Positions 7,290 to 36,475 of a stretch of DNA of 64,000 nt are shown here, piece by piece. The stretch is from Gammaproteobacteria bacterium (GTDB lineage Bacteria > Pseudomonadota > Gammaproteobacteria > UBA4575): the NCBI GenBank assembly GCA_965242685.1, contig OZ251487.1, positions 93,591 to 157,590 of the forward strand. The letters are read 5' to 3'. Numbering within the stretch: position 1 is the first letter of the stretch; each line of letters begins with the position of its first letter. The position numbers and the translations under genes were made by a program. The notes under the pieces were generated by a model. That model had not been told where the DNA came from and did no database searches. It saw nothing but the letters and a program-made list of their open reading frames with translations.

Positions 7290-7823
7290 TTATCGTAAAT
7301 GGTACGCTACGGCCTTGTCCAGCAGGCCTTGTGCATCCAGCAGAAGGTCGCATACTTCTCTCACCGCGCCCTGTCCGCCTTTTGTCGAAGTCTCCCAGTG
7401 CGCATACCGTTTAACGGCGGCGTGTGCATTGGCGACGGCGATGGCCAGACCACAACGCGACATGATTTGCAGGTCGATGATATCATCTCCCGTGAATGCC
7501 GCCTGGCGTTCATCCAGGTTCAGCTTGGACAGCAGTTCCCGGAAGGTACTGAATTTATCTCTGCACCCTTGGTATACATGCCTTACCTGGAGGTTTCGCA
7601 TCCGGTGCTCAAGCGCCTCGGAAGTGCGCCCCGTTATGACCCCCACCTCAATGCCGTAATGCAACAACAGGCGAATGCCGTGACCGTCTTGGGTGTTGAA
7701 TACCTTTAGCTCGGCGCCTTGCGCGTCCATATATAAACTACCGTCCGTAAGAACGCCGTCCACGTCAAACATGGCCAGGCGTATCGCTTTGGCGCGCTCG
7801 GATATATCTGCTGGAATGTTCAT
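7290..7823 (-). CDS. kdsC: 3-deoxy-D-manno-octulosonate 8-phosphate phosphatase (HAD family)
   Basis: 177 aa with the HAD motif FDVDGVLTDG. Position is upstream of lptC. Confidence 0.8.
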   Translation of the reverse strand: MNIPADISERAKAIRLAMFDVDGVLTDGSLYMDAQGAELKVFNTQDGHGIRLLLHYGIEVGVITGRTSEALEHRMRNLQVRHVYQGCRDKFSTFRELLSKLNLDERQAAFTGDDIIDLQIMSRCGLAIAVANAHAAVKRYAHWETSTKGGQGAVREVCDLLLDAQGLLDKAVAYHLR

Positions 7824-7846
7824 GTGAATGCGTGACGTAGAGTTGA

Positions 7847-8800
7847 TTATACGGTTTGCCGATAAATGAAAAATAGGTAGGCAAAGTACGCTACAAAAAA
7901 TAAAGCCCCGAGGCCACGGGAGATACTTTTCGTTCGTGAAAAGGCCAGCGCGAACAGAAATAATGCCAGCGTTGCCGTGATCATAATGGGGAGGTCGCGT
8001 GTATAGACTTGTGCGGGGATCAGGTATGCCGCGATCACCCCCGCCGTACCGGTGACCCCGAGGGTGTTGAAGATATTTGAACCGATCACGTTTCCCAAGG
8101 CCAGCTCACCGTGTTTCTTCATGGCACTTGCAACGCACGTGGCCAGTTCCGGCAGGCTGGTGCCCAAGGCAACGATCGTCAAACCGATGATCAGGTCCTC
8201 GACGCCCAGATAGTTTGCCATCGAAACCGCCGACCATACCACCAGCTTGGAACTGAGCAATAAAACACCCAGACTGAACGACAAGCCCAACAACAGGACG
8301 GCAAGGCCTTTGTGCGCAGAATCGTCTGGTGCATGTTGTTCTCGTCCGCGCCCTTTCAATTCAAAGTGCGTCAGCAAGTACAGTGTAAATCCCAAGGCCA
8401 GTATCAGCATAACGCCGTCCGCCCGCTGCAAATTCCGGTCCAATATCAACAGGATGAATAATGTCGTCGCCGTGATCAGTAACAGAAAGTCCCTGTATAA
8501 AATATTTTTGCTTACATAGAGTGGCGTAATGCACAAGGTGGTACCCAGGATAAGCAAAATATTGGTGATGTTTGACCCCAGGGCGTTACCTATGGCCAGT
8601 CCCGGGTTCCCCTGCCAGGCGGACAATCCGGAAACCAGCAGCTCCGGGGCCGATGTGCCAAACCCGAGTATAACGAATCCGACCACGATCTTTGAAAGAC
8701 GCAAGTGCCGCCCCAGATGCAGGGCATGATCGGTAAACCTGTCGGCACTCCAAATCAAGAGCAAAAGCCCCGCGACAAAGGCAGAGGAAAATAAATACAT
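7847..8800 (-). CDS. yrbG: Na+/Ca2+ exchanger (CaCA) family inner-membrane protein, YrbG-like
   Basis: Two alpha-repeats (GNALGSNITNILLILG and GNVIGSNIFNTLGVTG). Start moved to the internal Met MYLFSSAFVAGLLLLIWSADRF (ATG at 8798-8800), which aligns with the YrbG N-terminus. The longer ORF-track start would overlap the subtilase gene. Confidence 0.65.
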   Translation of the reverse strand: MYLFSSAFVAGLLLLIWSADRFTDHALHLGRHLRLSKIVVGFVILGFGTSAPELLVSGLSAWQGNPGLAIGNALGSNITNILLILGTTLCITPLYVSKNILYRDFLLLITATTLFILLILDRNLQRADGVMLILALGFTLYLLTHFELKGRGREQHAPDDSAHKGLAVLLLGLSFSLGVLLLSSKLVVWSAVSMANYLGVEDLIIGLTIVALGTSLPELATCVASAMKKHGELALGNVIGSNIFNTLGVTGTAGVIAAYLIPAQVYTRDLPIMITATLALFLFALAFSRTKSISRGLGALFFVAYFAYLFFIYRQTV

Positions 8801-8994
8801 AAGTGAAATGCTTGGTTTATGCTTTGCTTGGTGTTCTACAGCCAATAGAATACACTTTAATACACTTTCCCCCGCAAACGTAAAGAAAAAAGCCAAATGC
8901 GGGCCACCTGCCAAATGCGGGTCACCTGCTAAATACAATGTTATGTGATCGATTCGGGGTAGTATTATCTCCGGTGATGTATAGAGGTACTTCA

Positions 8995-11235
8995 ATGAAA
9001 ACTCTGGCTATGGGAATGGTGGTGTTCACCGCCACAATATTGTTCAGTTGTGGCGGCGGGGGCGGCGGCGGGGGCGACGGGCCAAACCCTTGTACCGGCA
9101 TCAGGGTCTTCGACGGCTGCCTCTCGCGGCAGGAGTTTGCGGGACGCCAAGCCCCCATCGCCCGTGCGCGCCTTGCAGGCTCCGAGTTTCAGGCGCAATG
9201 GGGCCTGGAGACGATCAACGCACACCGGGCACATGCGGCCCTGGAAGCGAAATATGGCAGGCGGGTAAGGCCTGGGACAGGGGTTACCGTCGGCTTCCTG
9301 GATGATGGTATTGATCGTAATCACCCTGAATTCAGCGGCGTAGCGATCACCGAAACGATCATACAATCGGGAGGCAGTCGCTCACATGGTACTTCGGTTG
9401 CCAGCGTTATTGCCGCACAATCCAACGGCCGGGGCTTTGTCGGTGTCGCACCGGGGGCCGCCATCGAGATGGGGGCGATCAGCTTCGGGATTGCCCCCAC
9501 GTATTATACGCCGATTTCACTGACAAACCTTGCCGCCGCCGATGCAGGCTTTGAAAGAAACTTAAAGACTATGTTTGCTCGTGACGTTGATATTTTGAAT
9601 CTCAGCATTGGGTACTCGGGAATCATAGAGAATTATAGTGAGGGAGACCTTCGCACGTATTTTCCAAAAACGATTGCCGCCCAAGCACAGGCCGGTGCCG
9701 GAGAAAAACGCATCCTGGTCTGGGCTGCCGGTAATCATAATAATGCACTTTGCACGTCGGGCACACCTAATTGCAGCAGCGGCGGGTATATCACTGCAAG
9801 CTCGCCCTCTATAACCGCCGGGTTGGCCGCAAGAATTAGCGAATTGGCTTCGCACTCCATCGCCGTCGTAGCCTTAAATCAAGCCGGCACGATTGCCGGT
9901 TTCTCCAACCGTTGCGGGATTGCACAGAATATCTGCATTGCGGCCCCTGGCGTTGATATTGTGGCTGCCGAGGCCGGAAGTACCGGGTCTAGAACAGTAA
10001 ATGGCACGTCTTTTTCTGCCCCGATGGTAGCGGGCGGCCTAGCCTTGATGAAGCACTTTTTCCGTGGCCAACTCTCAAACACGGAACTGGTTACCCGGCT
10101 TTACGCAACCGCCAACAAAACCGGTATATACAGTAACCGAAGCATCTACGGGCAAGGGCTGATGGATCTCGGCGCCGCCGTCTCTCCCGTGGGCGGTACC
10201 TCGATCACCACGGGCACTCGAGTCGGGGACGCCGGCCACTTCACCCAAATTACCCACTTAACAACGGGGAGCGCCTTCGGCGACGGCCTGTCACGCGCCT
10301 TGGCCGACCGCGAAATTGTGGCGTTTGACTCGTTGGGAAGCCCGTTCTGGTTTGACCTCCCCGCCTTTACCCAAAATCGCACCCCTTCACTGATGAAGCG
10401 GCTCGATGACCTGATGACCCGTAATGAAGACCCGCAACCATGGGCTACACACGAGATACCGCCGGCAGCCGGGATCTATGGCGATCCCCGCAATCGGGGC
10501 ACATACAGGATCAGTCTTTACGAACGTCCGGTCGCGGCCGAAAGCAGCGCATTCAACCTTGCCGAGCAGGTTGTAGCATTTACCTCCAAGGTGCCAAGCG
10601 GCTTTGAAACTATGGTATTCACCACCGCCGGCCTCACTGGCAACAACAACCCCAAGACGGGCGCCATAGCGGCTTGGAGACCCTCGAACGTGCCGTTCGG
10701 AATTCGCCTCGGTTGGCTTGGAGAACGAGAGGCAGTACTGGATTCCATGGCTGACGGGGCATTCGGTCGGTTATCGGGCGACAGCTTCGTGACCGGCCTT
10801 GAAATGAATACCGAATTCAAGGGCTGGCGGCTGGCCGTCGACGCCGAGGTCGGCCTGGTCACATCGGATACATCAGGGGGCGTCATCGCCGACCTGTCGG
10901 ACATGGTGACCAGCGCGTTTTCACTGCGCGCCCATCGGCACTTGACGAGCAGGGACAGGCTCACGTTCTCGCTATCGCAACCGCTGCGGATAGAACGCGG
11001 CTCTGCCGAGCTTGTGTTGCCGGTCGGTCGCACCAAAGACGGCAAAGTACTGCATGAACAGGTCTCTGCACGCCTGACGCCATCCAGCAGACAGATCGAT
11101 CTATCCGTGCGTTGGCAACGGATGAAACTATTCAACGGCAGACTTCGCGCCGAGATCACCGCCTCGCGCAATCCGGGGCACATGGACAAGGGCACCGAGT
11201 TCAGCCTGCTGGCGGGTTGGGAAGCTGCCTTCTAA
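8995..11235 (+). CDS. S8 (subtilisin-like) serine protease lipoprotein with C-terminal autotransporter beta-barrel (NalP-like)
   Basis: Lipobox LFSC followed by a Gly8 linker. Catalytic motifs DDGID, HGTSVAS, GTSFSAPMVAG and AAGNHN. The C-terminal ~300 aa are beta-strand-rich and end in an aromatic residue (...LLAGWEAAF). Start taken at the ATG at 8995 (MKTLAMGMVVF). Confidence 0.8.
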   Translation: MKTLAMGMVVFTATILFSCGGGGGGGGDGPNPCTGIRVFDGCLSRQEFAGRQAPIARARLAGSEFQAQWGLETINAHRAHAALEAKYGRRVRPGTGVTVGFLDDGIDRNHPEFSGVAITETIIQSGGSRSHGTSVASVIAAQSNGRGFVGVAPGAAIEMGAISFGIAPTYYTPISLTNLAAADAGFERNLKTMFARDVDILNLSIGYSGIIENYSEGDLRTYFPKTIAAQAQAGAGEKRILVWAAGNHNNALCTSGTPNCSSGGYITASSPSITAGLAARISELASHSIAVVALNQAGTIAGFSNRCGIAQNICIAAPGVDIVAAEAGSTGSRTVNGTSFSAPMVAGGLALMKHFFRGQLSNTELVTRLYATANKTGIYSNRSIYGQGLMDLGAAVSPVGGTSITTGTRVGDAGHFTQITHLTTGSAFGDGLSRALADREIVAFDSLGSPFWFDLPAFTQNRTPSLMKRLDDLMTRNEDPQPWATHEIPPAAGIYGDPRNRGTYRISLYERPVAAESSAFNLAEQVVAFTSKVPSGFETMVFTTAGLTGNNNPKTGAIAAWRPSNVPFGIRLGWLGEREAVLDSMADGAFGRLSGDSFVTGLEMNTEFKGWRLAVDAEVGLVTSDTSGGVIADLSDMVTSAFSLRAHRHLTSRDRLTFSLSQPLRIERGSAELVLPVGRTKDGKVLHEQVSARLTPSSRQIDLSVRWQRMKLFNGRLRAEITASRNPGHMDKGTEFSLLAGWEAAF

Positions 11236-11449
11236 GATCATTCCGATATCCCTTAAGTAAGACACCGAAGATACAAAATGCCGATCAAACCCATATTCCT
11301 TGTTGGCATTTTTATGCTATTTCGTCTACCTGAAAGCAGATCCTCTAGTCCATTCTGGCATTTCAATGCTATTTCGTTTACCATGAAAAAGTGACGGTAC
11401 ACGTACACGACAAAAAACAGGCATAGAGGGGAAATAGGCAGAGGGAACA

Positions 11450-11845
11450 ATGGGCATTACAGAATTGATAGATAAATATGGCGAGGCGGGCGTAGTGTTT
11501 GGCTTTGTGCTGACTTGGATTATTTTCAGTTTCCAAATTAGAGGTATGAAAGGCCGAATTGATGGTATAGAAACCAACATCAATACCCGAATTGATGGTA
11601 TAGAAACCAATATCAATACCCGAATTGATGGTATGGAAACCAATATCAATACAAAGATGGAAGCCATCAACAAAAGCATTGAGAAACACGACACAGAGCA
11701 ACGGGAATTACGTGGTTTAGTGGTGGGCGTAATCCAAAGTATAGGCGACATCAAACAAAGCATAGGCGGGCTTGAAAAAATGATGGCAAGCCAACAACCC
11801 CAGACCGACAGCACACCGGCCGCCGCCACAGCACAGGGCAAATAA
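11450..11845 (+). CDS. small membrane-anchored coiled-coil protein with three 11-aa (33-bp) tandem repeats RIDGIETNINT
   Basis: 131 aa with an N-terminal TM helix (VVFGFVLTWIIFSF). The hendecad repeats are encoded at 11555-11653. Strand is chosen on plausibility; the antisense ORF 11326..11841 looks like a repeat artefact. Confidence 0.4.
   Translation: MGITELIDKYGEAGVVFGFVLTWIIFSFQIRGMKGRIDGIETNINTRIDGIETNINTRIDGMETNINTKMEAINKSIEKHDTEQRELRGLVVGVIQSIGDIKQSIGGLEKMMASQQPQTDSTPAAATAQGK
11555..11653 (+). repeat. 3 x 33-bp tandem repeat (cgaattgatggtatagaaaccaaYatcaataccc)
   Basis: Direct inspection; in-frame within the small CDS. Confidence 0.8.
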
Positions 11846-12101
11846 GTTCCGTTTCTCCCTTCTAATCCGTCCGGATAAATCAGAGCAATACTGAAAACCT
11901 TCGCCGCGGACCGGCCTCGCCCGAGCAGAATCGCGGATTGGTTTTTAGGCGTTCAATATCTGGCAAATTTCGGAGACAAATTTACCCTTTTAGAAATATA
12001 TCCTTCCCGCGAAACAGGGTTCTACCACCCGCAACGGCGGTTGATTTCCAGATCAGGGTAGAACGCGGGTCTGGTTTTTAGGCGTTCAATAGCTAGTGAT
12101 T
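11846..12101. repeat. module-flanking intergenic repeat block (family copy A)
   Basis: Contains tgatttccagatcagggtagaacgcgggtctggtttttaggcgttcaat units and the ggagacaaatttacccttttagaaatatatccttcccgcgaaacagggttctaccacccgcaacgg segment. Both recur at 16138-16497 and 19649-20031. Confidence 0.7.
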
Positions 12102-15100
12102 TCACCACCTGATCACGGCCTGTACGCCGATGCCGTGTTCGGTATCCTCGTCATCGTATTCGAGGCGTTCGCCTTCCAGTTTTAAGGTCAAGGCTTCGGT
12201 AAACTTGTACTCGCTCCCCAGTCGGTAGTGACGCCCTTCGTCCCGCACCCGCAGCCCCAGGTACGGCGTCAGCAGCCCCCGCCTGTGATACAACCCGTAC
12301 CCCAATTCGGTCTCCAACTGCAACGCGGTGTCGGCGGCCTCGTCCTCGTCCTTCAACGCCAGTCCCCGCTCCCACAGTGCGCCGATGCCGCCGCCGGTGG
12401 TGCCCCAACTCGGGATGACGCTAAATCGCAGCCCCCGCCCGTTGGCCGCCGGCAACCATTCCAAAGCCCCGCCAAGCCCCCATTCGTCCAAGTCCCCGCT
12501 ATGCGTCACCAGGTAGCGCCCGTGCGTGCGAAGGCGCAGCCCGCCGTTGCTATAACCAACATCCCCGCCGATCTCGACGCCACTGCCGGTCTCGCCGTCG
12601 CCGCCGTCATAGCGTACCCCCAGCTCCAGGCTCGAGGTCAGGATCGCGCCCGTCTCCAGCACCTGACGACGGCTGCCCTCGGCGGCCAGCCGCAGTCGGT
12701 GGGTGTCGATGGTTATGCCGTCTATACGGTCGCCGTTGTCGTCGATGCGCCACCGCGTGGTCTGTCCCTCGCCCCGAATGGCGATCTTCAGATCATCGCG
12801 TTCATAGACCCGCATACTGCCCCCCGCCGACAAGGTCTTGAGGGTGCTGTCGCTGCGTTGTTTCTCATCGAGATCCTCGTCGTCGATGGTGATCTCGCCC
12901 TCGCCGTAGCCCACCGTCGCCCACATCCGGCTGCCGTCTTCGCCGCTCCAGCCAAGGTACGGATGAATGCTCACCATCTCGCTCTCGTGATCGCCCTTGA
13001 TCGTCTCGCCTTCGCTACTATCTTTATAGTCGATGTCGCTCTCAAACCAGGATACGCTCACGCCGGCGGTCTTGTTTGTGCCCCATTCGGTATCGATCCC
13101 CAAGTGCCACGAGAAGGCATCGCCGTCCCAATCCAGCCAGCCGGTGTCTAACGCCAGATCGCGCCAGTCGCCCGCCCCCCACAAGGTCAGGTTGTTGCCG
13201 AAGGTATCGGCGCCGTTCAACGGCAGCGCAAAGTTTTGTCCGCTCAACGCCTGGCGCCATTTGAAGGTGCCGTCTTCCAATGATTGGGCGTTGCCTTGGA
13301 TTACATTCCCGAACGAGGAGGTCGGCGCCCGCGAACCGCCCCCCGCTCCTTCCAGTCGTTCGCGGATCGCCCGACCCACGCTGTCGGTCAACGCCCGCGC
13401 CAGCTCCGGTACGATCGATTCGTTGATGCGCCGCAGACGCGCCCGTTCCTTGTCCCGCGAGTTCTCGACGGTGATCGCAAACGTCATCATCGCCGTGCCG
13501 CCCACCACTTCCCAGGTGTAGTCGGTCGCCACTTGTTCTTCCGTCGGCGTGCCGCTGATGGTGCGCGTGCCCGCATTCAAACTCAGCCCCACCGGCAAGG
13601 CCGGGCTTAGGGTGTAGTCGACATCGCCGTCCACCAACTCCGGCAGGATCAACGCCGTGATCGGGGTGTTGACGGTATACACTTGATCGGGTATATCGAC
13701 ATAGCCCACCCCAAAGGCTGAAAACACACTCACGGTCGCGCATATCAAGTCGCTCCCGCCCGGATTGGTGCGCAAGGTCGTACCGCTCACGGCCTCCCAT
13801 TCGCCGCGCCCTTCGTCGTAGTGCAACAGCAACAGGGGACGCCCGGTCGCCGCCGTCTCCAGCTCGGCGCTATACGGCAGACAGATCTCTAGCCCGCCAC
13901 TCGGCACGGGGGCGACATCGATGTCGACCACGGTGCCATCGCCCAAGGTGTAGGTGCTGCCGGTCAACGGCACATTCGATGACACCCGACTCAGGGTGAT
14001 CGCCAAATCCTGGCCCAAGGCGGCCGGCGGCGCCACTTCCACCTCTTCGTCCACGCCCTCGGATACCGTCACGGTGACCGCCTGGCCGTTGATCTCGTAG
14101 TTGGTGGTGCCCGCTCTGTGCATGGCGATGCGCCGGTCGGCGCTGCCGCCTTGTACGGTGATGACCACGGCATCCGCCTGCGTGTCTTCGTAGCCGCTGC
14201 CGGTGCCGCTTACGGTGTGACCGATGGTCACGCCCCCCTTGGCGTAGTCGTCGTTGTCGGTCGCCACCGTCGCCGTCACCGTCACCGCGCCGTTCCAGTT
14301 GCCCGTCCCGAACGTGACGCTGCTTACATCGGGGGTGACGGCGGCATCGCCGCTCGTCAGGGTCAGCGTGACATTGGCCGCCGGCTCGGCGTCCAGCACC
14401 ACCGTATAGGTGCCGCTGCCCCCTTCGGCGATGGTCAGTTCGGTCGGCGTCACGGTCACGCCCTTGGTGTCGTCATCGACGGTGCGCACCGCCACGTCTC
14501 GTTGACTCAGCGCGGTGTAGACGCTGTCGCTGCCGGTCGGACTCGCCAACCGCACCGCATAGTCTTGATCGCCATCGTCCACAAAGTCGTCGACGCCGGT
14601 CAGCGTCACCGTCTGCGTACTGTTCCAGTTACTGGCCGTAAACGTCAGACTGGCCGGACTCACCGTCCCCTCGCTGGTGTCGGTGCTGCTCAACGCGATC
14701 ACCACGTTGGCGGTCGGCTCGCTGTCCAGCTCGACATCGAAGGTCGCGGTGCGGCTTGCGCCCGTCGCCTCGGTCACCGTCTCGCGCGGCGTACCCGCGC
14801 CCAAGTCGCTCAGCGTAATGCCGGCCGTGTCATCGTCGGTGGTGGTGACCCCCACGTCAACGTTGGCCAGACCGTTGTAGTTGGCGTCCGCGGTGCTCGC
14901 CGGATCAAGGGTGATGTCGTAGTTCTGATCGCCATCGTCAATGCTATCGTTCGCCCCGGTCACCGTCACCGTCTGATCGCTGTTCCAGTTAGAGGGCGTG
15001 AACGTCATACTGCTCGGACTGACCGTACCTTCGCCAGTGTCGGTGCTGCTGACCGCCACCGTTACGTTGGCCGTCGGCTGGGTGTTGAGTTTGACGGTGA

Positions 15101-15722
15101 ACGTCGAGGTGACCCCCGCCTCGGTCGCCTGGCCGGTGACCGCGCCGACGCCGAGGGTAGGCGACTCGTCGTCCAGGATCGTCAGCGTGGCGGTCGTGAC
15201 GGCGGTATGACCTTTTTCCCAATAAAAAGATGTATCACCTGCATCGTCACCAGGAAACTCCGCCGACACCGTCACCGTCCGGGTGCCGTCCACGTTTCCG
15301 TTGTCGGGAATCATGAGCGTCACCACCCCGTTCTCGGGCCGCGTAAGAGTGATTGTACCGGCGTTAGGTCTGTTATACCTCAGCCGCACATTGGTGCTCA
15401 GCGAGGCGCCGCCGGCGTTGGTGGGAGTCGATACGACAATATCAAAATATGCAAGGGCATTTAGGTGCGATGCTTTCGGATTGTATTGGCAATTGTGAAT
15501 CGTCCCGGTGCAAAGGATGTTAACGGGGACGGTCGCCGCCTGGCCCTCGGTGACGGTAAGCGAACTGGCGCGTTCCGCGCCCAACTCTATCCTGAAACTA
15601 TGGTGCTGGCCGGAGCCGGCATGCGCCCCCGCCGTACCCGCCGTCAGCAGTAGCGGTGCGGCCACAGAAACGCCGGCCAAAAGTCGGCGTACAAGGCGAT
15701 TGCGGAAAAGGCCAAGCACCAT
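12102..15722 (-). CDS. giant surface protein: signal peptide, tandem ~100-aa beta-sandwich (Calx-beta/cadherin-like) repeats, C-terminal autotransporter-type beta-barrel
   Basis: 1206 aa. Signal peptide LLAGVSVAAPLLLTAGTAGAHA. Repeated TANVTV..SSTDT.EGTVSP.S.TFT.SNWN..QTVTVTG.DD..DDGDQ.Y units. C-terminus ...GIGVQAVIRW. Paralogous to 16498..19164 and 20032..22353. Confidence 0.8.
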   Translation of the reverse strand: MVLGLFRNRLVRRLLAGVSVAAPLLLTAGTAGAHAGSGQHHSFRIELGAERASSLTVTEGQAATVPVNILCTGTIHNCQYNPKASHLNALAYFDIVVSTPTNAGGASLSTNVRLRYNRPNAGTITLTRPENGVVTLMIPDNGNVDGTRTVTVSAEFPGDDAGDTSFYWEKGHTAVTTATLTILDDESPTLGVGAVTGQATEAGVTSTFTVKLNTQPTANVTVAVSSTDTGEGTVSPSSMTFTPSNWNSDQTVTVTGANDSIDDGDQNYDITLDPASTADANYNGLANVDVGVTTTDDDTAGITLSDLGAGTPRETVTEATGASRTATFDVELDSEPTANVVIALSSTDTSEGTVSPASLTFTASNWNSTQTVTLTGVDDFVDDGDQDYAVRLASPTGSDSVYTALSQRDVAVRTVDDDTKGVTVTPTELTIAEGGSGTYTVVLDAEPAANVTLTLTSGDAAVTPDVSSVTFGTGNWNGAVTVTATVATDNDDYAKGGVTIGHTVSGTGSGYEDTQADAVVITVQGGSADRRIAMHRAGTTNYEINGQAVTVTVSEGVDEEVEVAPPAALGQDLAITLSRVSSNVPLTGSTYTLGDGTVVDIDVAPVPSGGLEICLPYSAELETAATGRPLLLLHYDEGRGEWEAVSGTTLRTNPGGSDLICATVSVFSAFGVGYVDIPDQVYTVNTPITALILPELVDGDVDYTLSPALPVGLSLNAGTRTISGTPTEEQVATDYTWEVVGGTAMMTFAITVENSRDKERARLRRINESIVPELARALTDSVGRAIRERLEGAGGGSRAPTSSFGNVIQGNAQSLEDGTFKWRQALSGQNFALPLNGADTFGNNLTLWGAGDWRDLALDTGWLDWDGDAFSWHLGIDTEWGTNKTAGVSVSWFESDIDYKDSSEGETIKGDHESEMVSIHPYLGWSGEDGSRMWATVGYGEGEITIDDEDLDEKQRSDSTLKTLSAGGSMRVYERDDLKIAIRGEGQTTRWRIDDNGDRIDGITIDTHRLRLAAEGSRRQVLETGAILTSSLELGVRYDGGDGETGSGVEIGGDVGYSNGGLRLRTHGRYLVTHSGDLDEWGLGGALEWLPAANGRGLRFSVIPSWGTTGGGIGALWERGLALKDEDEAADTALQLETELGYGLYHRRGLLTPYLGLRVRDEGRHYRLGSEYKFTEALTLKLEGERLEYDDEDTEHGIGVQAVIRW

Positions 15723-15741
15723 TGTACCTATGGTAAATCGC

Positions 15742-15755
15742 GGGGGGGGGGGGGG
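15742..15755. repeat. homopolymeric G14 tract (C14 on the coding strand), 19 nt upstream of the giant-protein start
   Basis: Counted directly. Conserved flanks aaatcgc-Gn-atattg are shared with the tracts at 19230 and 22419. Confidence 0.9.
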
Positions 15756-15780
15756 ATATTGGCATGATCATCCTAACTTT

Positions 15781-16137
15781 TCAGAAAAACAGGAGTTTGC
15801 CCACTATTAGCAGGGTAAGGCCCAAGTTCAACCCGATTGCCCATTGAAGCCAGGTCTGACCGATTTGGAGTTTGTCAATATCTGCCTTAAGCTCTTGTTT
15901 CAGTGCTTTATTATCTGCCTTAAGCTCTTGTCTCAGTGCTTTATTATCCGCCTTAAGCTCTTGTCTCAGTGCTTTATTATCCGCCTTAAGCTCTTGTCTC
16001 AGTGCTTCAAGATCTGTCTTGGTGGCTACTTCCGCGTCGGGGTGTTTGAACGTATCCACAATCACCCGCGCCTGCGCCTCCGGCATGTCGGCGGCGGTCA
16101 ATTTCCTGATGGCCTCGGCGGTGTCTATTGCATACAT
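15781..16137 (-). CDS. DUF1640-like tail-anchored coiled-coil protein (paralog A; 4 copies of the 33-bp repeat)
   Basis: 118 aa. Conserved N-domain MYAIDTAEAIRKLTAADMPEAQARVIVDTFKHPDAEVATKTD, then LRQELKADNKA hendecad repeats and a C-terminal TM helix (WAIGLNLGLTLLIVGKLLFF). Family assignment is from memory. Confidence 0.55.
   Translation of the reverse strand: MYAIDTAEAIRKLTAADMPEAQARVIVDTFKHPDAEVATKTDLEALRQELKADNKALRQELKADNKALRQELKADNKALKQELKADIDKLQIGQTWLQWAIGLNLGLTLLIVGKLLFF
15883..16014. repeat. 4 x 33-bp tandem repeat (gccttaagctcttgtYtcagtgctttattatcY)
   Basis: Direct inspection; encodes KALRQELKADN on the minus strand. Confidence 0.85.
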
Positions 16138-16497
16138 GGCTTTATCCTAAACGCCCACATCATAGCGAAGTTCAAGCGTCATTGGAATAAGCCACTATAT
16201 CCTAGATTATTCCCAAAGATAAATAGAGTGCCTAGTTGATCTCGACAGGGCGGTTTCTAGGCTTTCAATATCTGGTGATTTTCGATTTTCGGCGGTTAAA
16301 AATACCGCCTACAAGGGAGATAAAATCACCCTTTTAGGAATATATCCTTCCCGGAAATAGGGTTCTACCACCCGCAACGGCTGGTGGTTTTTTGATCAGA
16401 GTAGAATTGTAGATTGGTTATCTAGGCGTGCTATATACTGTTGATTCCAGATCAGAAGGCCGTAGATCGGTTTTTAGGCGTTCGATGGCGGGTGATT
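16138..16497. repeat. module-flanking intergenic repeat block (family copy B), including a hairpin + T6 terminator-like element
   Basis: accacc-N10-ggtggt followed by tttttt, and ccagatcag...gatcggtttttagg units. Homologous to blocks A and C. Confidence 0.65.
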
Positions 16498-19164
16498 TCA
16501 CCACCTATACTCGACGGTTACGCCGATGCCGTGTTCGGTGTCGGCACGGTCTTGCTCCAGACGTTCGCATTCGGTGTTCAGCGTCAGGGTTTCACGTAAC
16601 TTGAAACGTCCGCCCAACCGATAGTGACGCCCTTCGTCCCGCACGCTCATCCCCAAGTACGGCGTCAGCAGTCCGCCGATATGATGCCGTCCGTAGCCGA
16701 TCTCGCCGTCCAGCTTTAGACTGCTGTCCGGGTCTTCTTCGTCTTCCTCGTATAATGCCGCCCCCGCCTTCCACAACCGCTGTAGACCGCTCTCGGCGGT
16801 CCCCCAGGTCGGCGTCAGGGTGATGTGTAGACCTCGCCCATCGGTCATCGCCCTGTATACCAGCGATACGTTCGCGCCCCATTCATCGTAATCCGAATTC
16901 GCCACCAGCGTCCGCGCGCCCGCCGTCAGACCCAACCGGCCCGACCCGTAGTCTACGCCCACGCCCACTTCCGCACCACTGCCGGTGTCGCCATCGCCGC
17001 CGTCATAACGCACGCCCAGTTCAAATCTTGGCAATAACCGCGCGCCCGATGCCAGGATTTTCTCCTGCCTTGCCTCTACCGCCACCCGCAAGCGTGTTGC
17101 GTCCGACTTCTGTCGTTGAATGCCATCGCCGTTGTCGTCCACTTCGAAATCCGCATACATCGCCTCGCCCCGCAGCGAGACCTCGGTGCCATTGGCCGCG
17201 TACAACGGCCCCCGCGCCCCGGCCGAGGCCATTCGCATGTCGGCGTCCGACTTCTGACGCTGCCCGCCGGCGACGATCTCTAAATCGCCACTGCCAACGC
17301 CCGCCATCGCCCATAGGCTGATGCCGCCCGGCGTGATCCATCCCAAATAGGGTTGCGCACTGGTCATCTCCAGCTCCCACTTGCCCTTTTGACCCTGGTG
17401 TCCGTAATCTAATTTCGCCTCCGACCAGGTGGCCGCCAGCCCCACACGCAGACCGTTTGCCAGCAATCGATCCGCCCCCAGGTGGGCGCTGGTCACGTCG
17501 CCGTCCCACTTCACGCCGCGCGCCTCGCCATCGAGATCGCGGTAGTCGCCGCCGCCCCACAAGACGATGTCGCCACCGCCGCCCGCGTCATTCCCGTCCA
17601 GCGACAAGGCAAACGCCGCCTGCGGCAGCAGGTGTCGTTTCCAGTCTAATTCCCCGTCTTCCTGCATAGCCGACCCGTGTCGCATCAGCCGTTCCAAGTT
17701 TACGTTTTCCGTCAGCGAGGGTGATGGTGATGTCGGTGCCCCGCCCAAATCCGCCCGCTCGAGACGTTGACGCACCGCCGTCGCGCGGCTGTCCGCCATC
17801 GCCCGCGCCACTTCCGGCAGCAGTACTTCCGTCACCTCATCCCCCGCGCCGTCGTTGTCGGTGTTGGTTACCAACACCGTCACATCCGCCAGCGCGGCAT
17901 AGCGGGCATCGGAACTGCTCGGGTCCAGTCGCACCGCACAGGTCGCGCCGACATCGCTCACCATGTCGTCCACGCCCCGCACCGTCACGGTCTGCGGGGT
18001 GTTCCATAACCTTACCTGTGCGTCCGGGTCTTCGTCTGCGGCACTGAGCACGAACGTCAACGTCCCGCTCTCGCCGGCGGCAATGTAGGTCATGCCGCCG
18101 TCCACCGACACTTCGCACTCGTCGCCGTCTTGGCTTGAAACATCCACCGCCGAATCCACCTGCGGGATGGTCGACAGCCGCACCGTGAACGTGTCCGTGC
18201 CGCCATCCTCCGTGACTACGGTCGAACCGCCGCTCTCAACCACCGTCAGCCCCACTTCGTCGTCTTCGGTCATCACCTCGACGGTCTCCGTCGCCAGAGT
18301 GTTGTAATTGGTATCGCCGCTACTGCTCGGATCCAGCTCGATGTTGTAGCTCTGCGTGCCGTCTTGAATGGTGTCGTCGACGCCGGTCACGGTGACCGTC
18401 TGGGTGCTGTTCCAGTTGCTGTTCGTGAACGTCAGACTGGTCGGACTCGGCGTGCCCTCGCCGGGGTCGGCACTGCTCACCGCCACCGTTACGTTGGCGG
18501 TCGGCTGCGACGCCAGCCTGACGGTGAAGGTCGCCGTCTGCGCGGTGTTGCCTTCATTTGCCGTGCCGGTCACGGCACTCGTCCTGATCCCCGGCGTGTC
18601 TTCGTCCAGAATCGTCAGTGTGGCGGACTGGATAAAGACTTCTGGTACGTCGGAAATCTCCACAAAGTAATTCTGATCCGTACCATAAGTCCTAGGCGCC
18701 CCCGCTATGTTCACCGTCCGGTCTCCGTCCATAGCCGTATTGCCGGCAATCGTGAGCGTTACCGTCCCCGAAGTGTTCGAGCCTAAGGTATTCGAGCCTG
18801 CATTTATGGTAAACCCTAAGTGCTGACCCGTCTGCGTGATGCCGCCGGCGCCGCTGGGAGTCGGAGTCCCTGCGGTGATGGTAATACCGTTTCTGTTGTT
18901 TCGATTCTGGTCGGGATATCCATTCTGTTGGCAAGAAGCAGTTCCACCACCATGTGAGGTGCAGCGGACGGTGACGGCGACGGTCGCCGCCTGGCCCTCC
19001 GTGACGGTCAACGTGCTTGCCCCGTTCAACAACACCTCGAAGTGCAAATGACGGTTCGTCCCTATGTTATGCGCCCCCGCCGTACCCGCCGCAAGCAACA
19101 GCGACACAGATAGCAACGCCGCCGAAAGGCGGTGTGCAAGGCTATGGCGAAGTCCACGCATCAT
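16498..19164 (-). CDS. giant surface protein, paralog 2 (signal peptide, beta-sandwich repeats, C-terminal beta-barrel)
   Basis: The ORF-track start at 19305 reads through the poly-G tract (PPPPP). Start moved to MMRGLRHSLAHRLSAALLSVSLLLAAGTAGA (ATG at 19162-19164), matching paralog 3. C-terminus ...GIGVTVEYRW. Confidence 0.8.
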   Translation of the reverse strand: MMRGLRHSLAHRLSAALLSVSLLLAAGTAGAHNIGTNRHLHFEVLLNGASTLTVTEGQAATVAVTVRCTSHGGGTASCQQNGYPDQNRNNRNGITITAGTPTPSGAGGITQTGQHLGFTINAGSNTLGSNTSGTVTLTIAGNTAMDGDRTVNIAGAPRTYGTDQNYFVEISDVPEVFIQSATLTILDEDTPGIRTSAVTGTANEGNTAQTATFTVRLASQPTANVTVAVSSADPGEGTPSPTSLTFTNSNWNSTQTVTVTGVDDTIQDGTQSYNIELDPSSSGDTNYNTLATETVEVMTEDDEVGLTVVESGGSTVVTEDGGTDTFTVRLSTIPQVDSAVDVSSQDGDECEVSVDGGMTYIAAGESGTLTFVLSAADEDPDAQVRLWNTPQTVTVRGVDDMVSDVGATCAVRLDPSSSDARYAALADVTVLVTNTDNDGAGDEVTEVLLPEVARAMADSRATAVRQRLERADLGGAPTSPSPSLTENVNLERLMRHGSAMQEDGELDWKRHLLPQAAFALSLDGNDAGGGGDIVLWGGGDYRDLDGEARGVKWDGDVTSAHLGADRLLANGLRVGLAATWSEAKLDYGHQGQKGKWELEMTSAQPYLGWITPGGISLWAMAGVGSGDLEIVAGGQRQKSDADMRMASAGARGPLYAANGTEVSLRGEAMYADFEVDDNGDGIQRQKSDATRLRVAVEARQEKILASGARLLPRFELGVRYDGGDGDTGSGAEVGVGVDYGSGRLGLTAGARTLVANSDYDEWGANVSLVYRAMTDGRGLHITLTPTWGTAESGLQRLWKAGAALYEEDEEDPDSSLKLDGEIGYGRHHIGGLLTPYLGMSVRDEGRHYRLGGRFKLRETLTLNTECERLEQDRADTEHGIGVTVEYRW

Positions 19165-19229
19165 TAGTAATTTGCGGTGGCCGCCGAACCTCCTACGGTC
19201 TGCGCGGGATGTGGTAATTACAAATCGCG

Positions 19230-19244
19230 GGGGGGGGGGGGGGG
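19230..19244. repeat. homopolymeric G15 tract, 65 nt upstream of the paralog-2 start codon
   Basis: Counted directly; same conserved flanks as tract 1. Confidence 0.9.
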
Positions 19245-19333
19245 CAATATGTCGTTTCATCGGAGGCTGCTCCACGTGAGTTTGTCCTGTAATTCCCGCG
19301 TACAATAATACGTATAGTTATATCGGCGTTCAA

Positions 19334-19648
19334 TCAAAAAAATACGAGTTTGAGCACGATTAGCAGAGTAAAGCTTAAATTCGCCCCGATTGCCCATTTG
19401 ATCCATTTTAACTCTGTTCTAAACTCTGCTCTAAGCTCTCCAATATCCGCCTTAAACTCTTGTCTCAGTGCTTTATTATCTGCCTTAAGCTCTTGTTTCA
19501 GCCCGTTGATACTTGTCTCAAGATCTGTCTTGGTGGCTACTTCCGCGTCGGGGTGTTTGAACGTATCCACAATCACGCGCGCCTGCGCCTCCGGCATGTC
19601 GGCGGCGGTCAATTTCCTGATGGCCTCGGCGGTGTCTATTGCATACAT
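19334..19648 (-). CDS. DUF1640-like tail-anchored coiled-coil protein (paralog B; about 2 repeat copies)
   Basis: 104 aa; same N-domain and C-terminal TM helix as paralog A. 33-bp repeats at 19449-19514. Confidence 0.55.
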   Translation of the reverse strand: MYAIDTAEAIRKLTAADMPEAQARVIVDTFKHPDAEVATKTDLETSINGLKQELKADNKALRQEFKADIGELRAEFRTELKWIKWAIGANLSFTLLIVLKLVFF

Positions 19649-20031
19649 AACTTTATCCTAAACGCCCAACATTCTAGCGAAGTTCGGGCGTCATTGGAAT
19701 AAGCCACTATATCCTAGCTATTCCCAAAGATAAATAGAGTGTCTAGTTGATCTCGACAGGTCAGTTTTTAGGCTTTCAATGGCTGTTGATTTCCAGATTA
19801 GAGTAAAACCGCGGATCGGTTTTTAGGCGTTTAATATCTGGTAATTTTCGGAGACAAAATCCCCCTTTTAGAAATATATCCTTCCCGCGAAACAGGGTTC
19901 TACCACCCGCAACGGCTGGTGATTTCCAGATCAGGGTAGAACGCGGGTCTGGTTTTTAGGCGTTCGATGGCTGCTAATTTCAGATCAGAAGGCCGTAGAT
20001 CGGTTATCTAGGCGTGCTATATCTGTTGATT
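19649..20031. repeat. module-flanking intergenic repeat block (family copy C)
   Basis: Two tgatttccagatYagRgtaRaaccgcggRtcKgtttttaggcgttYaat units plus the conserved ggagacaaaatcccccttttagaaatat... segment. Confidence 0.7.
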
Positions 20032-22353
20032 TCACCACCTGTATTCAACCGTTACGCCGATGCCGTGTTCGGTGTCGGCACGGTCTTGCTCCAGGCGTTC
20101 GCATTCGGTGTTCAGCGTCAGGGTTTCACGTAACTTGAAACGTCCGCCCAACCGATAGTGTCGCCCTTCGTCCCGCACGCTCATCCCCAAATACGGCGTC
20201 AGTAGTCCGCCGACATGATGCCGTCCGTAGCCGATCTCGCCATCCAGCTTTAGACTGCTGTCCGGGTCTTCTTCGTCTTCCTCGTATAAGGCGGTCCCCG
20301 CCTTCCACAACCGTTGCAGGCCGCTCTCGGCGGTCCCCCAGGTCGGCGTCAGGGTGATGTGCAGACCCCGTCCGTCGGTCATCGCCCGATAGACCAGCGA
20401 TACGTTGGCGCCCCATTCATCGTAATCGGAATTCGCCACCAGCGTCCGCGCACCCGCCGTCAGACCCAATCGGCCCGACCCGTAGTCTACGCCCACGCCT
20501 ACTTCCGCACCGCTACCGGTCTCGCCATCGCCGCCGTCATAACGCATGCCCAACTCAAATCTCGGTAATAACCGCGCCCCCGATGCCAGGATTTTCTCCT
20601 GCCTTGCCTCTACCGCCACCCGCAAGCGCGTGGCGTCCGATTTCTGTCGTTGAATGCTATCGCCGTTGTCGTCCACTTCGAAATCCGCATACATCGCCTC
20701 GCCGCGTAGCGATACTTCTGTTCCATTGGCCGCATACAACGGCCCGCGCGCACCGGCCGAGGCCATCCGCATGTCGGCGTCCGATTTCTGACGCTGCCCG
20801 CCGGTGACCACCTCTAGATCGCCGCTACCGACGCCCGCCATCGCCCATAGGGAAATACCGCCCGGCGAGGTCCATCCCAAATAGGGTTGCGCACTGGTCA
20901 TCTCCAGCTCCCACTTGCCCTTTTGACCTTGGTGTCCGTAGTCGAGTTTGGCCTCCGACCACGTCGCCGCCAGGCCTACGCGCAGACCGTTTGGCAACAG
21001 CCGATCCGCCCCCAGGTGGGCGCTGGTCACGTCGCCGTCCCACTTCACGCCGCGCGCCTCGCCATCGAGATCGCGGTAGTCGCCGCCGCCCCATAAGACG
21101 ATGTCGCTACCCATGCCCTCGTCATCGTCCAGCGACAGCGCAAACGCCGCCTGCGGCAGCAGGTGTCGTTTCCAGTCTAATTCCTCGTCCTCTTGCATAG
21201 CCGACCCGTGTCGCATCAGCCGTTCCAAGTTTAAGTTTTCCGTCAGCGAGGGTGATGGTGATGTCGGTGCCCCGCCCAAATCCGCCCGCTCGAGACGTTG
21301 ACGCACCGCCGTCGCGCGGCTGTCCGCCATCGCCCGCGCCACTTCCGGCAGCAGTACTTCCGTCACTTCTCCCGTGCCGTCGTTGTCCGTGTTGGTGACC
21401 AACACTGTGGTGCGCGCTATCGCCATCGCGTATTGGGCATCGGAACTGCTCGGGTCCAGTCGCACCGCACAGGTCGCGCCGACATCGCTCACCATGTCGT
21501 CCACGCCCCGCACCGTCACGGTCTGCGGGGTGTTCCACAAACTCGTCTGTGCGCTGAGCAGGTCGCTCGGGTCGGAGCCATCGGGCAGGAACGTCAACGG
21601 CCCGCCAACACCGGCGGCGAGATACGTCATGCCGCCATCCAGCGACACTTCGCACTCGTCGCCGTCTTGGCTTGAAACATCCACCGCCACCGCCGCCTGC
21701 GGGTTGGTCGGCAGCCGCACCGTGAACGTGTCCGTGCCGCCATCCTCCGTGACTACGGTCGAACCGCCGCTCTCGGTTACCGTCAGCCGCGTGTCATCGT
21801 CCAGGATCGTCAACGTGGCGGACGCTACGATCGGTGCGATGTCATATCTACTTTGGAACCAAGATCCGTATGCCTGGCCCGGCAGCTGCGTCGCGTAATA
21901 CCCCTCCGCGTTCACCGTCACGGTCCGACGTCCGTCCATAGCCGGATTGCCGTCAATCGTGAGCGTTGCCCCGGTATTGGTCGTGCCGAGGTTTATATTG
22001 GTGGTAGGTAGGGTATTATACCGCGCCTGCGGATTGGCGTTCAGCGTGACGCCGCCGCCACTGGCGGGGGCCGTGGCACTGACGGTGAAGTAGGCGCTGT
22101 TGCGCCGAGGCAGCTCGGAGAAACCGGTGATACTGGTGCAGTGGGCCGTGCAACGGACTCTGGCGGTGACGGTCGCCGCCTGGTCCTCCGTGACGGTCAA
22201 CGTGCTCGCCCCGTTCAACTCCACCTGAAAGTGCGCATGGATGGTACTACCCCTACCATCCGCCCCCGCCGTACCCGCCGCAAGCAGTAGCGACACAAAC
22301 AGCAACGCCGCCGAAAGGCGGTGTGCAAGGCTATGGCGAAGTCCACGCATCAT
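20032..22353 (-). CDS. giant surface protein, paralog 3 (signal peptide, beta-sandwich repeats, C-terminal beta-barrel)
   Basis: 773 aa. The C-terminal ~450 aa are nearly identical to paralog 2 (same ...LLPEVARAMADSRATAVRQRLERADLGGAPTSPSPSLTEN... through GIGVTVEYRW). Confidence 0.8.
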   Translation of the reverse strand: MMRGLRHSLAHRLSAALLFVSLLLAAGTAGADGRGSTIHAHFQVELNGASTLTVTEDQAATVTARVRCTAHCTSITGFSELPRRNSAYFTVSATAPASGGGVTLNANPQARYNTLPTTNINLGTTNTGATLTIDGNPAMDGRRTVTVNAEGYYATQLPGQAYGSWFQSRYDIAPIVASATLTILDDDTRLTVTESGGSTVVTEDGGTDTFTVRLPTNPQAAVAVDVSSQDGDECEVSLDGGMTYLAAGVGGPLTFLPDGSDPSDLLSAQTSLWNTPQTVTVRGVDDMVSDVGATCAVRLDPSSSDAQYAMAIARTTVLVTNTDNDGTGEVTEVLLPEVARAMADSRATAVRQRLERADLGGAPTSPSPSLTENLNLERLMRHGSAMQEDEELDWKRHLLPQAAFALSLDDDEGMGSDIVLWGGGDYRDLDGEARGVKWDGDVTSAHLGADRLLPNGLRVGLAATWSEAKLDYGHQGQKGKWELEMTSAQPYLGWTSPGGISLWAMAGVGSGDLEVVTGGQRQKSDADMRMASAGARGPLYAANGTEVSLRGEAMYADFEVDDNGDSIQRQKSDATRLRVAVEARQEKILASGARLLPRFELGMRYDGGDGETGSGAEVGVGVDYGSGRLGLTAGARTLVANSDYDEWGANVSLVYRAMTDGRGLHITLTPTWGTAESGLQRLWKAGTALYEEDEEDPDSSLKLDGEIGYGRHHVGGLLTPYLGMSVRDEGRHYRLGGRFKLRETLTLNTECERLEQDRADTEHGIGVTVEYRW

Positions 22354-22418
22354 TAGTAATTTGCGGTGGCCGCCGAACCTCCTACGGTCTGCGCGGGATG
22401 TGGTAATTACAAAATCGC

Positions 22419-22435
22419 GGGGGGGGGGGGGGGGG
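22419..22435. repeat. homopolymeric G17 tract, 65 nt upstream of the paralog-3 start codon
   Basis: Counted directly; same flanks (aaaatcgc-G17-caatatgtcg). Confidence 0.9.
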
Positions 22436-22527
22436 CAATATGTCGTTTCATCGGCGGCTGCTCCACGTGAGTTTGTCCTGTAATTCTCGCATACAATAAT
22501 ACACTAGTTATAATATCAGCGGTTCAA

Positions 22528-22797
22528 TCAAAAAAATACGAGTTTGAGCACGATTAGCAGAGTAAAGCTTAAATTCGCCCCGATTGCCCATTTGATCCAT
22601 TTTAACTCTGTTCTAAACTCTGCTCTAAGCTCTCCAATATCCGCCTTAAACTCTTGTCTCAGCCCTTCAATATCTGTCTTGGTGGCTACTTCCGCGTCGG
22701 GATGTTTGATCGTATCCACGATTACGCGCGCCTGCGCCTCCGGCATGTCGGCGGCGGTTAGCTTCCTGATGGTGTCGGCGGTGTCTATTGCATACAT
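22528..22797 (-). CDS. DUF1640-like tail-anchored coiled-coil protein (paralog C; about 1 repeat copy)
   Basis: 89 aa, MYAIDTADTIRKL...; C-terminal TM helix. Confidence 0.5.
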   Translation of the reverse strand: MYAIDTADTIRKLTAADMPEAQARVIVDTIKHPDAEVATKTDIEGLRQEFKADIGELRAEFRTELKWIKWAIGANLSFTLLIVLKLVFF

Positions 22798-22798
22798 G

Positions 22799-23200
22799 TT
22801 AGAAAAACAGGAGTTTGCCCACTATTAGCAGGGTAAGGCCCAAGTTCAACCCGATTGCCCATTGAAGCCAGGTCTGACCGATTTGGAGTTTGTCAATATC
22901 TGCCTTAAGCTCTTGTCTCAGTGCTTTATTATCTGCCTTAAGCTCTTGTCTCAGCGCTTTATTATCCGCCTTAAGCTCTTGTCTCAGCTCTTTGATATCT
23001 GCCTTAAGCTCTTGTCTCAGTGCTTTATTATCCGCCTTAAGCTCTTGTTTCAGTCCGTTGATACTTGTCTCAATATCTGTCTTGGTGGCTACTTCCGCGT
23101 CGGGGTGTTTGAACGTATCCACAATCACCCGCGCCTGCGCCTCCGGCATATCGGCGGCGGTCAATTTCCTGATGGCTTCGGCGGTGTCTATTGCATACAT
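22799..23200 (-). CDS. DUF1640-like tail-anchored coiled-coil protein (paralog D; about 5 repeat copies)
   Basis: 133 aa. 33-bp repeats at 22902-23066 encode five ELKAD units. Confidence 0.55.
   Translation of the reverse strand: MYAIDTAEAIRKLTAADMPEAQARVIVDTFKHPDAEVATKTDIETSINGLKQELKADNKALRQELKADIKELRQELKADNKALRQELKADNKALRQELKADIDKLQIGQTWLQWAIGLNLGLTLLIVGKLLFF
22902..23066. repeat. about 5 x 33-bp tandem repeat
   Basis: Direct inspection. Confidence 0.85.
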
Positions 23201-23524
23201 GACTTTACCCTAAACTCCCTCATTGTAGCGAAGTTCAAGCGTCATTGGAATAAGTCGAGGTGGCCGCCGGCGATAAAACACGTAATCTGCTAATTTCCAA
23301 CACGGCATTTCCATTTATTTTGCCTGTCAATATCATATAGGACGGGGTTTGTGGAGTTAAAGATTCACGTACAGGCGAAGGTTATATCGCAGGCAACGTC
23401 TTGAGTAAAAATGGTACAATTTGCTTGCACCCGTTCTTGTTTGGAAAATATAGGTACGTATTATTCGTTTAAGCATTTCGTTCGCGTGCGATGTCTTGAA
23501 ACTTTTTGGCAACGAGGGCCAGTC

Positions 23525-24198: not shown

Positions 24199-25554
<1,356 letters not shown>

Positions 25555-36421: not shown

Positions 36422-36475
36422 TTTCAGCCGCGACCTGGCGGTGAAGATCTCCTCGAATGAATACCTGGAGATAAA

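Follow-up and report, generated by a model that had tools for sequence, protein, structure and literature searches.

The DNA analysed here (the window) is a 64-kb stretch of contig OZ251487.1 from a gammaproteobacterium, and on its minus strand it carries three tandem copies of a unit made up of a small gene, a poly-C run and an autotransporter gene, the last of which we designate AT1, AT2 and AT3. Since the autotransporter genes are on the minus strand, the G tracts read on the plus strand are poly-C on the coding strand. Judged from the sequence, the three tracts probably are slipped-strand switches of phase or level (contingency loci), whichever mechanism they work by. The genes and tracts, in window coordinates, are as follows.

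12102-15722, minus strand: AT1, 1206 aa, with putative signal peptide MVLGLFRNRLVRRLLAGVSVAAPLLLTAGTAGA, a passenger of Ig-like type and a barrel at the C-terminus that is homologous to those of AT2 and AT3
15742-15755, coding strand minus: tract 1, G14 on the plus strand and C14 on the coding strand
16498-19164, minus strand: AT2, 888 aa from its MMRGL start or 920 aa from an upstream ATG, matching PF03797
19229-19244, coding strand minus: tract 2, G16 on the plus strand and C16 on the coding strand
20032-22353, minus strand: AT3, 773 aa, matching PF03797
22419-22435, coding strand minus: tract 3, G17 on the plus strand and C17 on the coding strand

A preliminary description of this DNA had reported three long G runs upstream of paralogous genes. 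We confirmed this and found no other G or C homopolymer of at least 8 nt in the 64 kb, the next longest being a G7. Twenty G10 words occur in the window, all within the three tracts, against 0.13 expected, and none of 100 shuffles reached 20. Several details of that description needed adjustment. It gave the lengths as 14, 15 and 17, of which the first and last are right and the second is 16, at 19229-19244. The context it called identical is shared on one side only: the flank aaatcgc (plus strand; gcgattt on the coding strand) is common to all three tracts, and the opposite flank is atattggc at tract 1 versus caatatgtcg at tracts 2 and 3. Recent duplication has left the regions upstream of AT2 and AT3 nearly identical, and the context that tracts 2 and 3 share therefore reflects descent. 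Tract 1 does lie 19 nt from the ATG and 25 nt past the stop of the small gene, and the spacing of 65 nt given for the other two is correct for tract 3 and should be 64 nt for tract 2. The genes had also been called giant, but their products (1206, 888 and 773 aa) are large autotransporters rather than giant proteins. An origin of the runs in assembly or sequencing error is extremely improbable. Calls of homopolymer length are prone to error and the exact values of 14, 16 and 17 are uncertain, but the runs lie inside a 1.83-Mb contig, they have conserved flanking sequence at paralogous sites, and homologous runs are present in many independent assemblies.

The autotransporter beta-domain PF03797 is matched by AT2 (3e-10) and AT3 (8.6e-11); AT1 has no Pfam match above threshold but aligns with the family across the barrel. 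The C-terminal residue is aromatic in all three proteins (RW), and inspection of their N-termini by eye shows a basic n-region with a hydrophobic core and AGA or AHA. We class AT1-AT3 as type Va (classical) autotransporters on the strength of the C-terminal barrel, with signal peptides judged by eye. AT3 is identical to a database protein (P0001) on the 1.83-Mb contig, and its nearest homologues share ~55% identity and come from contigs of 1.88, 1.03 and 0.50 Mb.

Each of the three tracts is preceded by an ATG at exactly 16 nt upstream. The segments involved are listed below.

15756-15771, minus strand: upstream start of AT1, ATGATCATGCCAATAT, with the ATG at 15771-15769
15723-15741, minus strand: AT1 link from tract to ATG, 19 nt, 45 nt (15 codons) shorter than the AT2 link
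19245-19260, minus strand: upstream start of AT2, ATGAAACGACATATTG, with the ATG at 19260-19258 and GGAG 9 nt upstream (19273-19270)
19165-19228, minus strand: AT2 link from tract to the MMRGL ATG, 64 nt, with that ATG at 19164
22436-22451, minus strand: upstream start of AT3, ATGAAACGACATATTG as in AT2, with GGAG 9 nt before the ATG
22354-22418, minus strand: AT3 link, the same as the AT2 link plus one T (65 nt), with the ATG at 22353

The 16-nt segments from ATG to tract match between AT1 and AT2/AT3 at only 8 of 16 positions, with the ATG and its spacing kept, and the 45-nt difference between the AT1 and AT2 links is a multiple of three. Frame outcomes were simulated for each gene at run lengths from n-2 to n+2; every gene has one fusion frame and two closed frames, and each added base alters the outcome. 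At the assembled C16 the upstream ATG of AT2 reads MKRHIAPPPPPRFVITTSRADRRRFGGHRKLL and is fused in frame to MMRGL..., the non-fusion frames of the link being closed by TAA (19220-19218) and TAG (19195-19193). The AT3 upstream ATG, with one extra T in the link, reads MKRHIAPPPPPAIL and then a stop at C17, and comes into frame at C15 or C18. For both genes the outcomes are limited to fusion, a stop at -56 or a stop at -31. The upstream ATG of AT1 reads MIMPISPPPPAIYHRYNGA... at C14, out of frame, and continues 122 nt past the AT1 start; C13 or C16 would bring it into frame, and at C15 it meets a stop 8 nt before the AT1 ATG. All three genes therefore have an upstream start that is in frame at one length class, as in switches of the NalP or pilC type, which have the repeat inside the 5′ end of the ORF. 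The preliminary description held that the tracts do not act through the reading frame, which is doubtful given the ATG upstream of each and the in-frame state of AT2. It had also taken the PPPPP read from tract 2 as an argument against an upstream start; this is unsupported, as the runs of relatives lie in upstream open reading frames (uORFs) or N-terminal extensions that encode poly-Pro or poly-Gly. The AT2 and AT3 links also contain TAGGAGG (19193-19199 and 22382-22388, minus strand), with a strong Shine-Dalgarno (SD)-like AGGAGG 24 nt before the MMRGL start of AT2, a distance too great for normal use; the TAG here ends one of the uORF frames, and the AGGAGG may aid re-initiation.

Relatives of the three genes were collected as 80 loci (1.07 Mb), all from metagenome-assembled genomes (MAGs), many of them named for sponges. 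They were found by a genome scan using the family alignment; a scan with a single autotransporter protein as the query returned no loci. The lineages include Candidatus Porisulfidus, Thermohalobaculum, Candidatus Spongiihabitans, Nitrospinales and Candidatus Poriferihabitaceae, as well as Candidatus Azotimanducaceae, Halieaceae, Nitrospirales and others. G/C runs of at least 10 nt number 31 in these loci, and 15 of them fall within 600 nt around the 5′ ORF boundary, a region that makes up 2.7% of the sequence. This is a 34-fold enrichment (binomial p = 6e-16), in which paralogs are not independent but six or more lineages are represented. Several of the other runs of this length adjoin family genes as well. 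The 5′ runs of the family span 10-30 nt and differ in position and strand among lineages, as listed here.

Porisulfidus: G11-13, 63-69 nt before the ATG
Thermohalobaculum: C25, C28 and C30, 60-71 nt before the ATG
Azotimanducaceae: C19 and C20
Poriferihabitaceae: C18, C23 and C30
Nitrospinales: G10, G11 and G19
Halieaceae: C19

Run length thus differs between paralogs in Porisulfidus and Thermohalobaculum as it does in the window (14, 16 and 17). The homopolymers of 25-30 C, at loci L014, L015, L019 and L081, would give up to ten prolines if translated, and to our knowledge they are far longer than those of phase-variable genes in pathogens. The distribution of runs also bears on whether any switching needs to be invoked. 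The runs could instead be neutral relics of duplication, products of gene decay in a small genome, or G-quadruplex or i-motif elements of fixed length. Such an account would be in keeping with the shared context that the recently copied AT2 and AT3 upstream regions owe to descent, and with several relatives that seem frameshifted at the run and could be read as pseudogenes. We nevertheless find it improbable: the other 60 kb of the window has no long G/C runs, the downstream ORFs are intact over 773-2200 codons, and the recurrence of 10-30-nt runs at the 5′ ends of this family, in unrelated lineages and at varied positions and strands, argues for selection.

The way the runs sit in the genes of relatives varies. 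Porisulfidus has a conserved TATAAT box 100-130 nt upstream of the G run (the spacer from TTGACA to TATAAT is 15 nt in the two copies having TTGACA), and a conserved ATG or GTG 74-75 nt before the G11-13 opens a 52-codon uORF. In five of ten leaders this uORF runs through GGGG to a TGA overlapping the main start (ATGAcc), and in the other five it stops at the TAA within a conserved cTAAaa right after the run. The uORF of Thermohalobaculum ends at TGATG on the main start in all three copies, despite differing run lengths and indels. These two groups resemble the window genes in belonging to the same family (~55% and ~40% barrel identity, respectively), in having a G/C run 60-71 nt before the signal-peptide ATG and in having an upstream ORF that starts before the run. 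They differ in that their uORF can end on ATGA or TGATG, whereas the window genes have an early stop in that frame and read through to an in-frame fusion in the open one; in addition, the coding strand of Porisulfidus carries G and that of the window genes carries C. The Porisulfidus leader of ~190 nt (L003-L012) is conserved as a unit at different genomic sites, with two GC hairpins whose stems are kept and whose 4-nt loops vary, and without a Shine-Dalgarno sequence before the main ATG.

In other lineages the run is within the N-terminal coding region, and a change of 1-2 bases restores a long ORF from an upstream ATG. Examples are the following loci.

L036: a 30-aa ORF as assembled (C19), extended to 2197 aa by C17 or C20
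L051: 940 aa at C16 or C19
L081: 1233 aa from MKRH..., the same opening as the AT2 extension, at C29 or C32
L040 (Nitrospinales): ATG 14 nt before G11 and 7 nt after a TTGACA-17-TAAAAT promoter (21 nt upstream of the run), with a long ORF restorable

Some runs, at L022, L026 and L030, are mid-gene with an apparent frameshift. L087, with 3x coverage and many frameshifts, was uninformative. A C10 at L001 10568-10577 (the same as L009 12418-12427) lies ~160 nt upstream of an ISL3 transposase gene, and its flanks, gaaatcgc...atattggcc, resemble those of tract 1 (aaatcgc-Gn-atattggc on the plus strand), which could be chance or a shared motif. L001 also has, at 7755-10384, six tandem small NHase_alpha-like genes (nitrile hydratase leader peptide type) beside a Porisulfidus autotransporter, and this set may be an array of precursors of ribosomally synthesized and post-translationally modified peptides.

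The slipped-strand reading given in the preliminary description is still the best one. We favour contingency loci because runs of this length are intrinsically unstable, the paralogs differ in run length and there is a repeated, specific association with the 5′ end of one surface-protein family, where runs are enriched ~34-fold. The C14, C16 and C17 are long enough to be hypermutable, and they are situated between the upstream ATG, 16 nt away, and the ORF start, 19-65 nt away. As to how they would work in the window, we lean towards a frame-dependent translational switch, though we put its chances a little short of even. The poly-C runs would sit in the transcribed 5′ leader of the three tandem type Va genes, and run length would set the frame of ribosomes initiating at the upstream ATG. 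One length class in three would fuse the upstream start to the signal peptide and ORF, which as assembled applies to AT2 at C16 only; in the other two classes ribosomes would stop soon after the run or cross the true start out of frame. Each gene would flip independently and randomly between expression states, giving up to eight surface combinations per population. The OFF state may be deepened by Rho-type polarity on the ribosome-free, C-rich leader RNA; poly-C RNA uncovered by ribosomes is the classic Rho activator. We infer from the sequence that run lengths vary within a population and that the upstream ATG is used for initiation, and the frame taken to be ON is likewise a prediction.

A number of observations weigh against a frame-dependent switch. 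The downstream ATG (MMRGL, MVLGL) lines up with MTGAR, the conserved start in the Porisulfidus homologues, and begins a signal peptide of normal appearance, and so may serve at any tract length. One of three copies in frame is exactly what chance would give, and the tract lengths are assembly consensus values, each of which could carry a one-base error. No export role is known for a poly-proline extension at the N-terminus, and a search for the ESPR motif (Pfam, E up to 10) found none in the window extension or in the extensions of six relatives. SD strength cannot rank the start codons, because SD sequences are weak or lacking at many genes genome-wide, and RNA polymerase slippage on long runs may blur the frames. 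None of the uORFs before AT1-AT3 ends on a stop overlapping the main start as in Porisulfidus and Thermohalobaculum, and in AT2 and AT3 an ATGA start-stop overlap is unreachable because the TAA at -56 closes that frame. Lastly, no second assembly turned up in exact-protein look-ups (AT3, AT2 as P0002, P0003 and small gene 2), JGI metagenomes held no match to a DNA pattern across the tract, and orthologous tracts cannot be compared because the sister genomes (88% MurA identity) lack the array.

The main rival to a frame-dependent switch is an effect of the tract within a transcribed 5′ untranslated region (UTR), where its length would tune mRNA amount, stability or accessibility in a graded manner that does not depend on frame. 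We consider this rather unlikely. A promoter-like element lies upstream of tract 2:

19305-19333, minus strand: promoter-like TTGAAC-17-TATTAT, just past the small gene 2 stop codon, 60 nt ahead of tract 2

With this element upstream, tract 2 would lie in the transcribed leader; the AT3 counterpart of the element has a spacer of 20 nt. The Porisulfidus TATAAT and the L040 TTGACA-17-TAAAAT are likewise both upstream of the run, the normal signal peptide opened by the downstream ATG suits a leader effect, and there are precedents in uspA1 (PMC7302503), tlpB with RepG (PMC8295292) and hmw (PMC12721329). The window leader lacks unusual structure, and an explanation by RNA structure was set aside as its fold is no more stable than shuffles (z = +1.5); an Rfam search of the leader gave no family match. 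A 5′-UTR effect also leaves unexplained the conserved ATG 16 nt before each tract, as well as the stop-start overlaps and in-ORF runs of relatives. A cyclic di-GMP-I riboswitch candidate at 22291-22377 (plus strand, opposite to the genes) fell below the cut-off of 35 bits, scoring 24.7 (E = 0.26), and was taken as chance.

In a promoter-spacer switch, the run would separate the -35 and -10 hexamers, as in meningococcal porA or Bordetella fim. There is a TTGCCC across the 5′ end of tracts 2 and 3, with a weak TAATTA after them, but the spacer implied at C16 is 21 nt, tract 1 has no TTG and is only 19 nt from its ATG, and the runs of relatives are clearly downstream of the promoter box. A consensus scan found no -35/-10 hexamer pair flanking any tract in the window, which leaves the promoter-spacer role offered in the preliminary description without sequence support, and we regard it as highly unlikely.

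Phase variation driven by homopolymers is textbook knowledge for vertebrate pathogens. In the Neisseria Opa family and pilC, repeats are found in the region coding for the signal peptide, with several paralogs switching independently. The window array is similar in that each paralogous surface gene has its own repeat at the leader end, which would give combinatorial expression; it differs from Opa, which has CTCTT pentamers and is not an autotransporter, and the window copies are tandem, each after a small coiled-coil gene. Closer in protein type are NalP and MspA of Neisseria meningitidis, phase-variable autotransporters with homopolymeric tracts in the coding sequence (PMC3723659). They share with AT1-AT3 the type Va architecture and a G/C homopolymer near the 5′ end, and their known switching is ON/OFF through the reading frame. 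Unlike in NalP and MspA, the window runs precede the signal peptide, behind a putative five-codon upstream start, and are longer (14-17 nt), and the host is an uncultured marine gammaproteobacterium and not a pathogen.

Moraxella catarrhalis uspA1 has a G(n) upstream of its ORF, and single-base length changes alter expression (PMC7302503). Here too a poly-G/C run lies between the promoter and start codon of an autotransporter adhesin gene, but UspA1 is a trimeric autotransporter, the effect is graded and on mRNA level, and no upstream ORF was described. The badE trimeric autotransporter adhesin of Bartonella has mononucleotide simple sequence repeats early in its ORF, which were shown to drive host adaptation (PMC11466379). 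It resembles the window locus as a contingency locus in an adhesin of a host-associated bacterium, with the repeat in the first part of the frame; it is of another autotransporter class and is experimentally supported, whereas the window locus is known from sequence alone. In Helicobacter pylori the leader G-repeat of tlpB is targeted by the small RNA (sRNA) RepG (PMC8295292). That system likewise places a variable homopolymer in an mRNA leader but needs a trans-acting sRNA, and no partner was identified for the window leaders, for which no sRNA search was made.

The class of switch mechanism is thus already well known, and the cross-phylum pattern and the start-stop-coupled uORF of relatives are the more novel leads. 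Our full-text literature searches found no report of phase-variable genes in symbionts of sponges or other marine invertebrates, and we know of no description of a start-stop-coupled, slippage-gated leader-ORF switch. A tentative idea, which we hold with some doubt, is that a horizontally spread autotransporter cassette with a built-in hypermutable 5′ G/C run is common to sponge-associated bacteria from unrelated phyla; uORF stop-start coupling would gate adhesin translation in several lineages, and the window array would be one variant. If so, mutualistic marine symbionts would use stochastic surface variation in the style of pathogens, perhaps to evade host phagocytosis or phage. If the switches work, each cell lineage would display a random subset of three adhesin-like surface proteins, and the strategy would be found again in symbionts ranging from Gamma- and Alphaproteobacteria to Nitrospinales, their runs reaching 30 nt. 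The runs would offer a testable handle on symbiont surface variation facing a filter-feeding, phagocytic host and phages. They are also places where a long-read consensus yields apparent frameshifts and mis-called starts.

The array has the character of a genomic island. Its GC content is 60-63% compared to ~52% in the flanks, and the island spans 11236-23410, with an S8 subtilase gene (8938-11235) on one side and mlaC-murA-hisG-aroG on the other. By its MurA the organism falls among uncultured Gammaproteobacteria. The two closest genomes (88% MurA identity) keep this neighbourhood and are missing the array at the site; the array is therefore a strain- or species-specific island. In the sister genome represented by L086 the subtilase gene is followed directly by mlaC with nothing between, and in that of L085 an unrelated methyltransferase/HATPase insert occupies the site; the site is therefore an insertion hotspot. 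The small genes of the array are listed below.

15781-16137, minus strand: small gene 1, 118 aa, a CCDC90-like coiled coil with a C-terminal transmembrane segment, directly upstream of tract 1
19334-19648, minus strand: small-gene paralog
22528-22797, minus strand: small-gene paralog
22799-23200, minus strand: small-gene paralog, the fourth copy

These coiled-coil genes contain an in-frame 33-bp tandem repeat (11 aa, LRQELKADNKA; 15879-16007 and 22897-23054), the copy number of which differs among paralogs (3.9, 4.8 and ~1, counting also 19334-19648 and 22528-22797), making it a second kind of repeat-length variation within the autotransporter island. Tandem repeats were also seen outside the small genes. 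An ORF of 131 aa at the island edge (11450-11845, plus strand) has an unrelated 33-bp repeat in three copies (RIDGIETNINT, 11554-11652) and no family match, and an 18-bp tandem repeat of 4.7 copies is found at 24207-24291, directly upstream of murA. Further away, at 34963-37372, there are two adjoining ORFs of 108-bp (36-aa) repeats that are of the Sel1/TPR type by eye; eukaryote-like repeat proteins of this type are typical in sponge symbionts.

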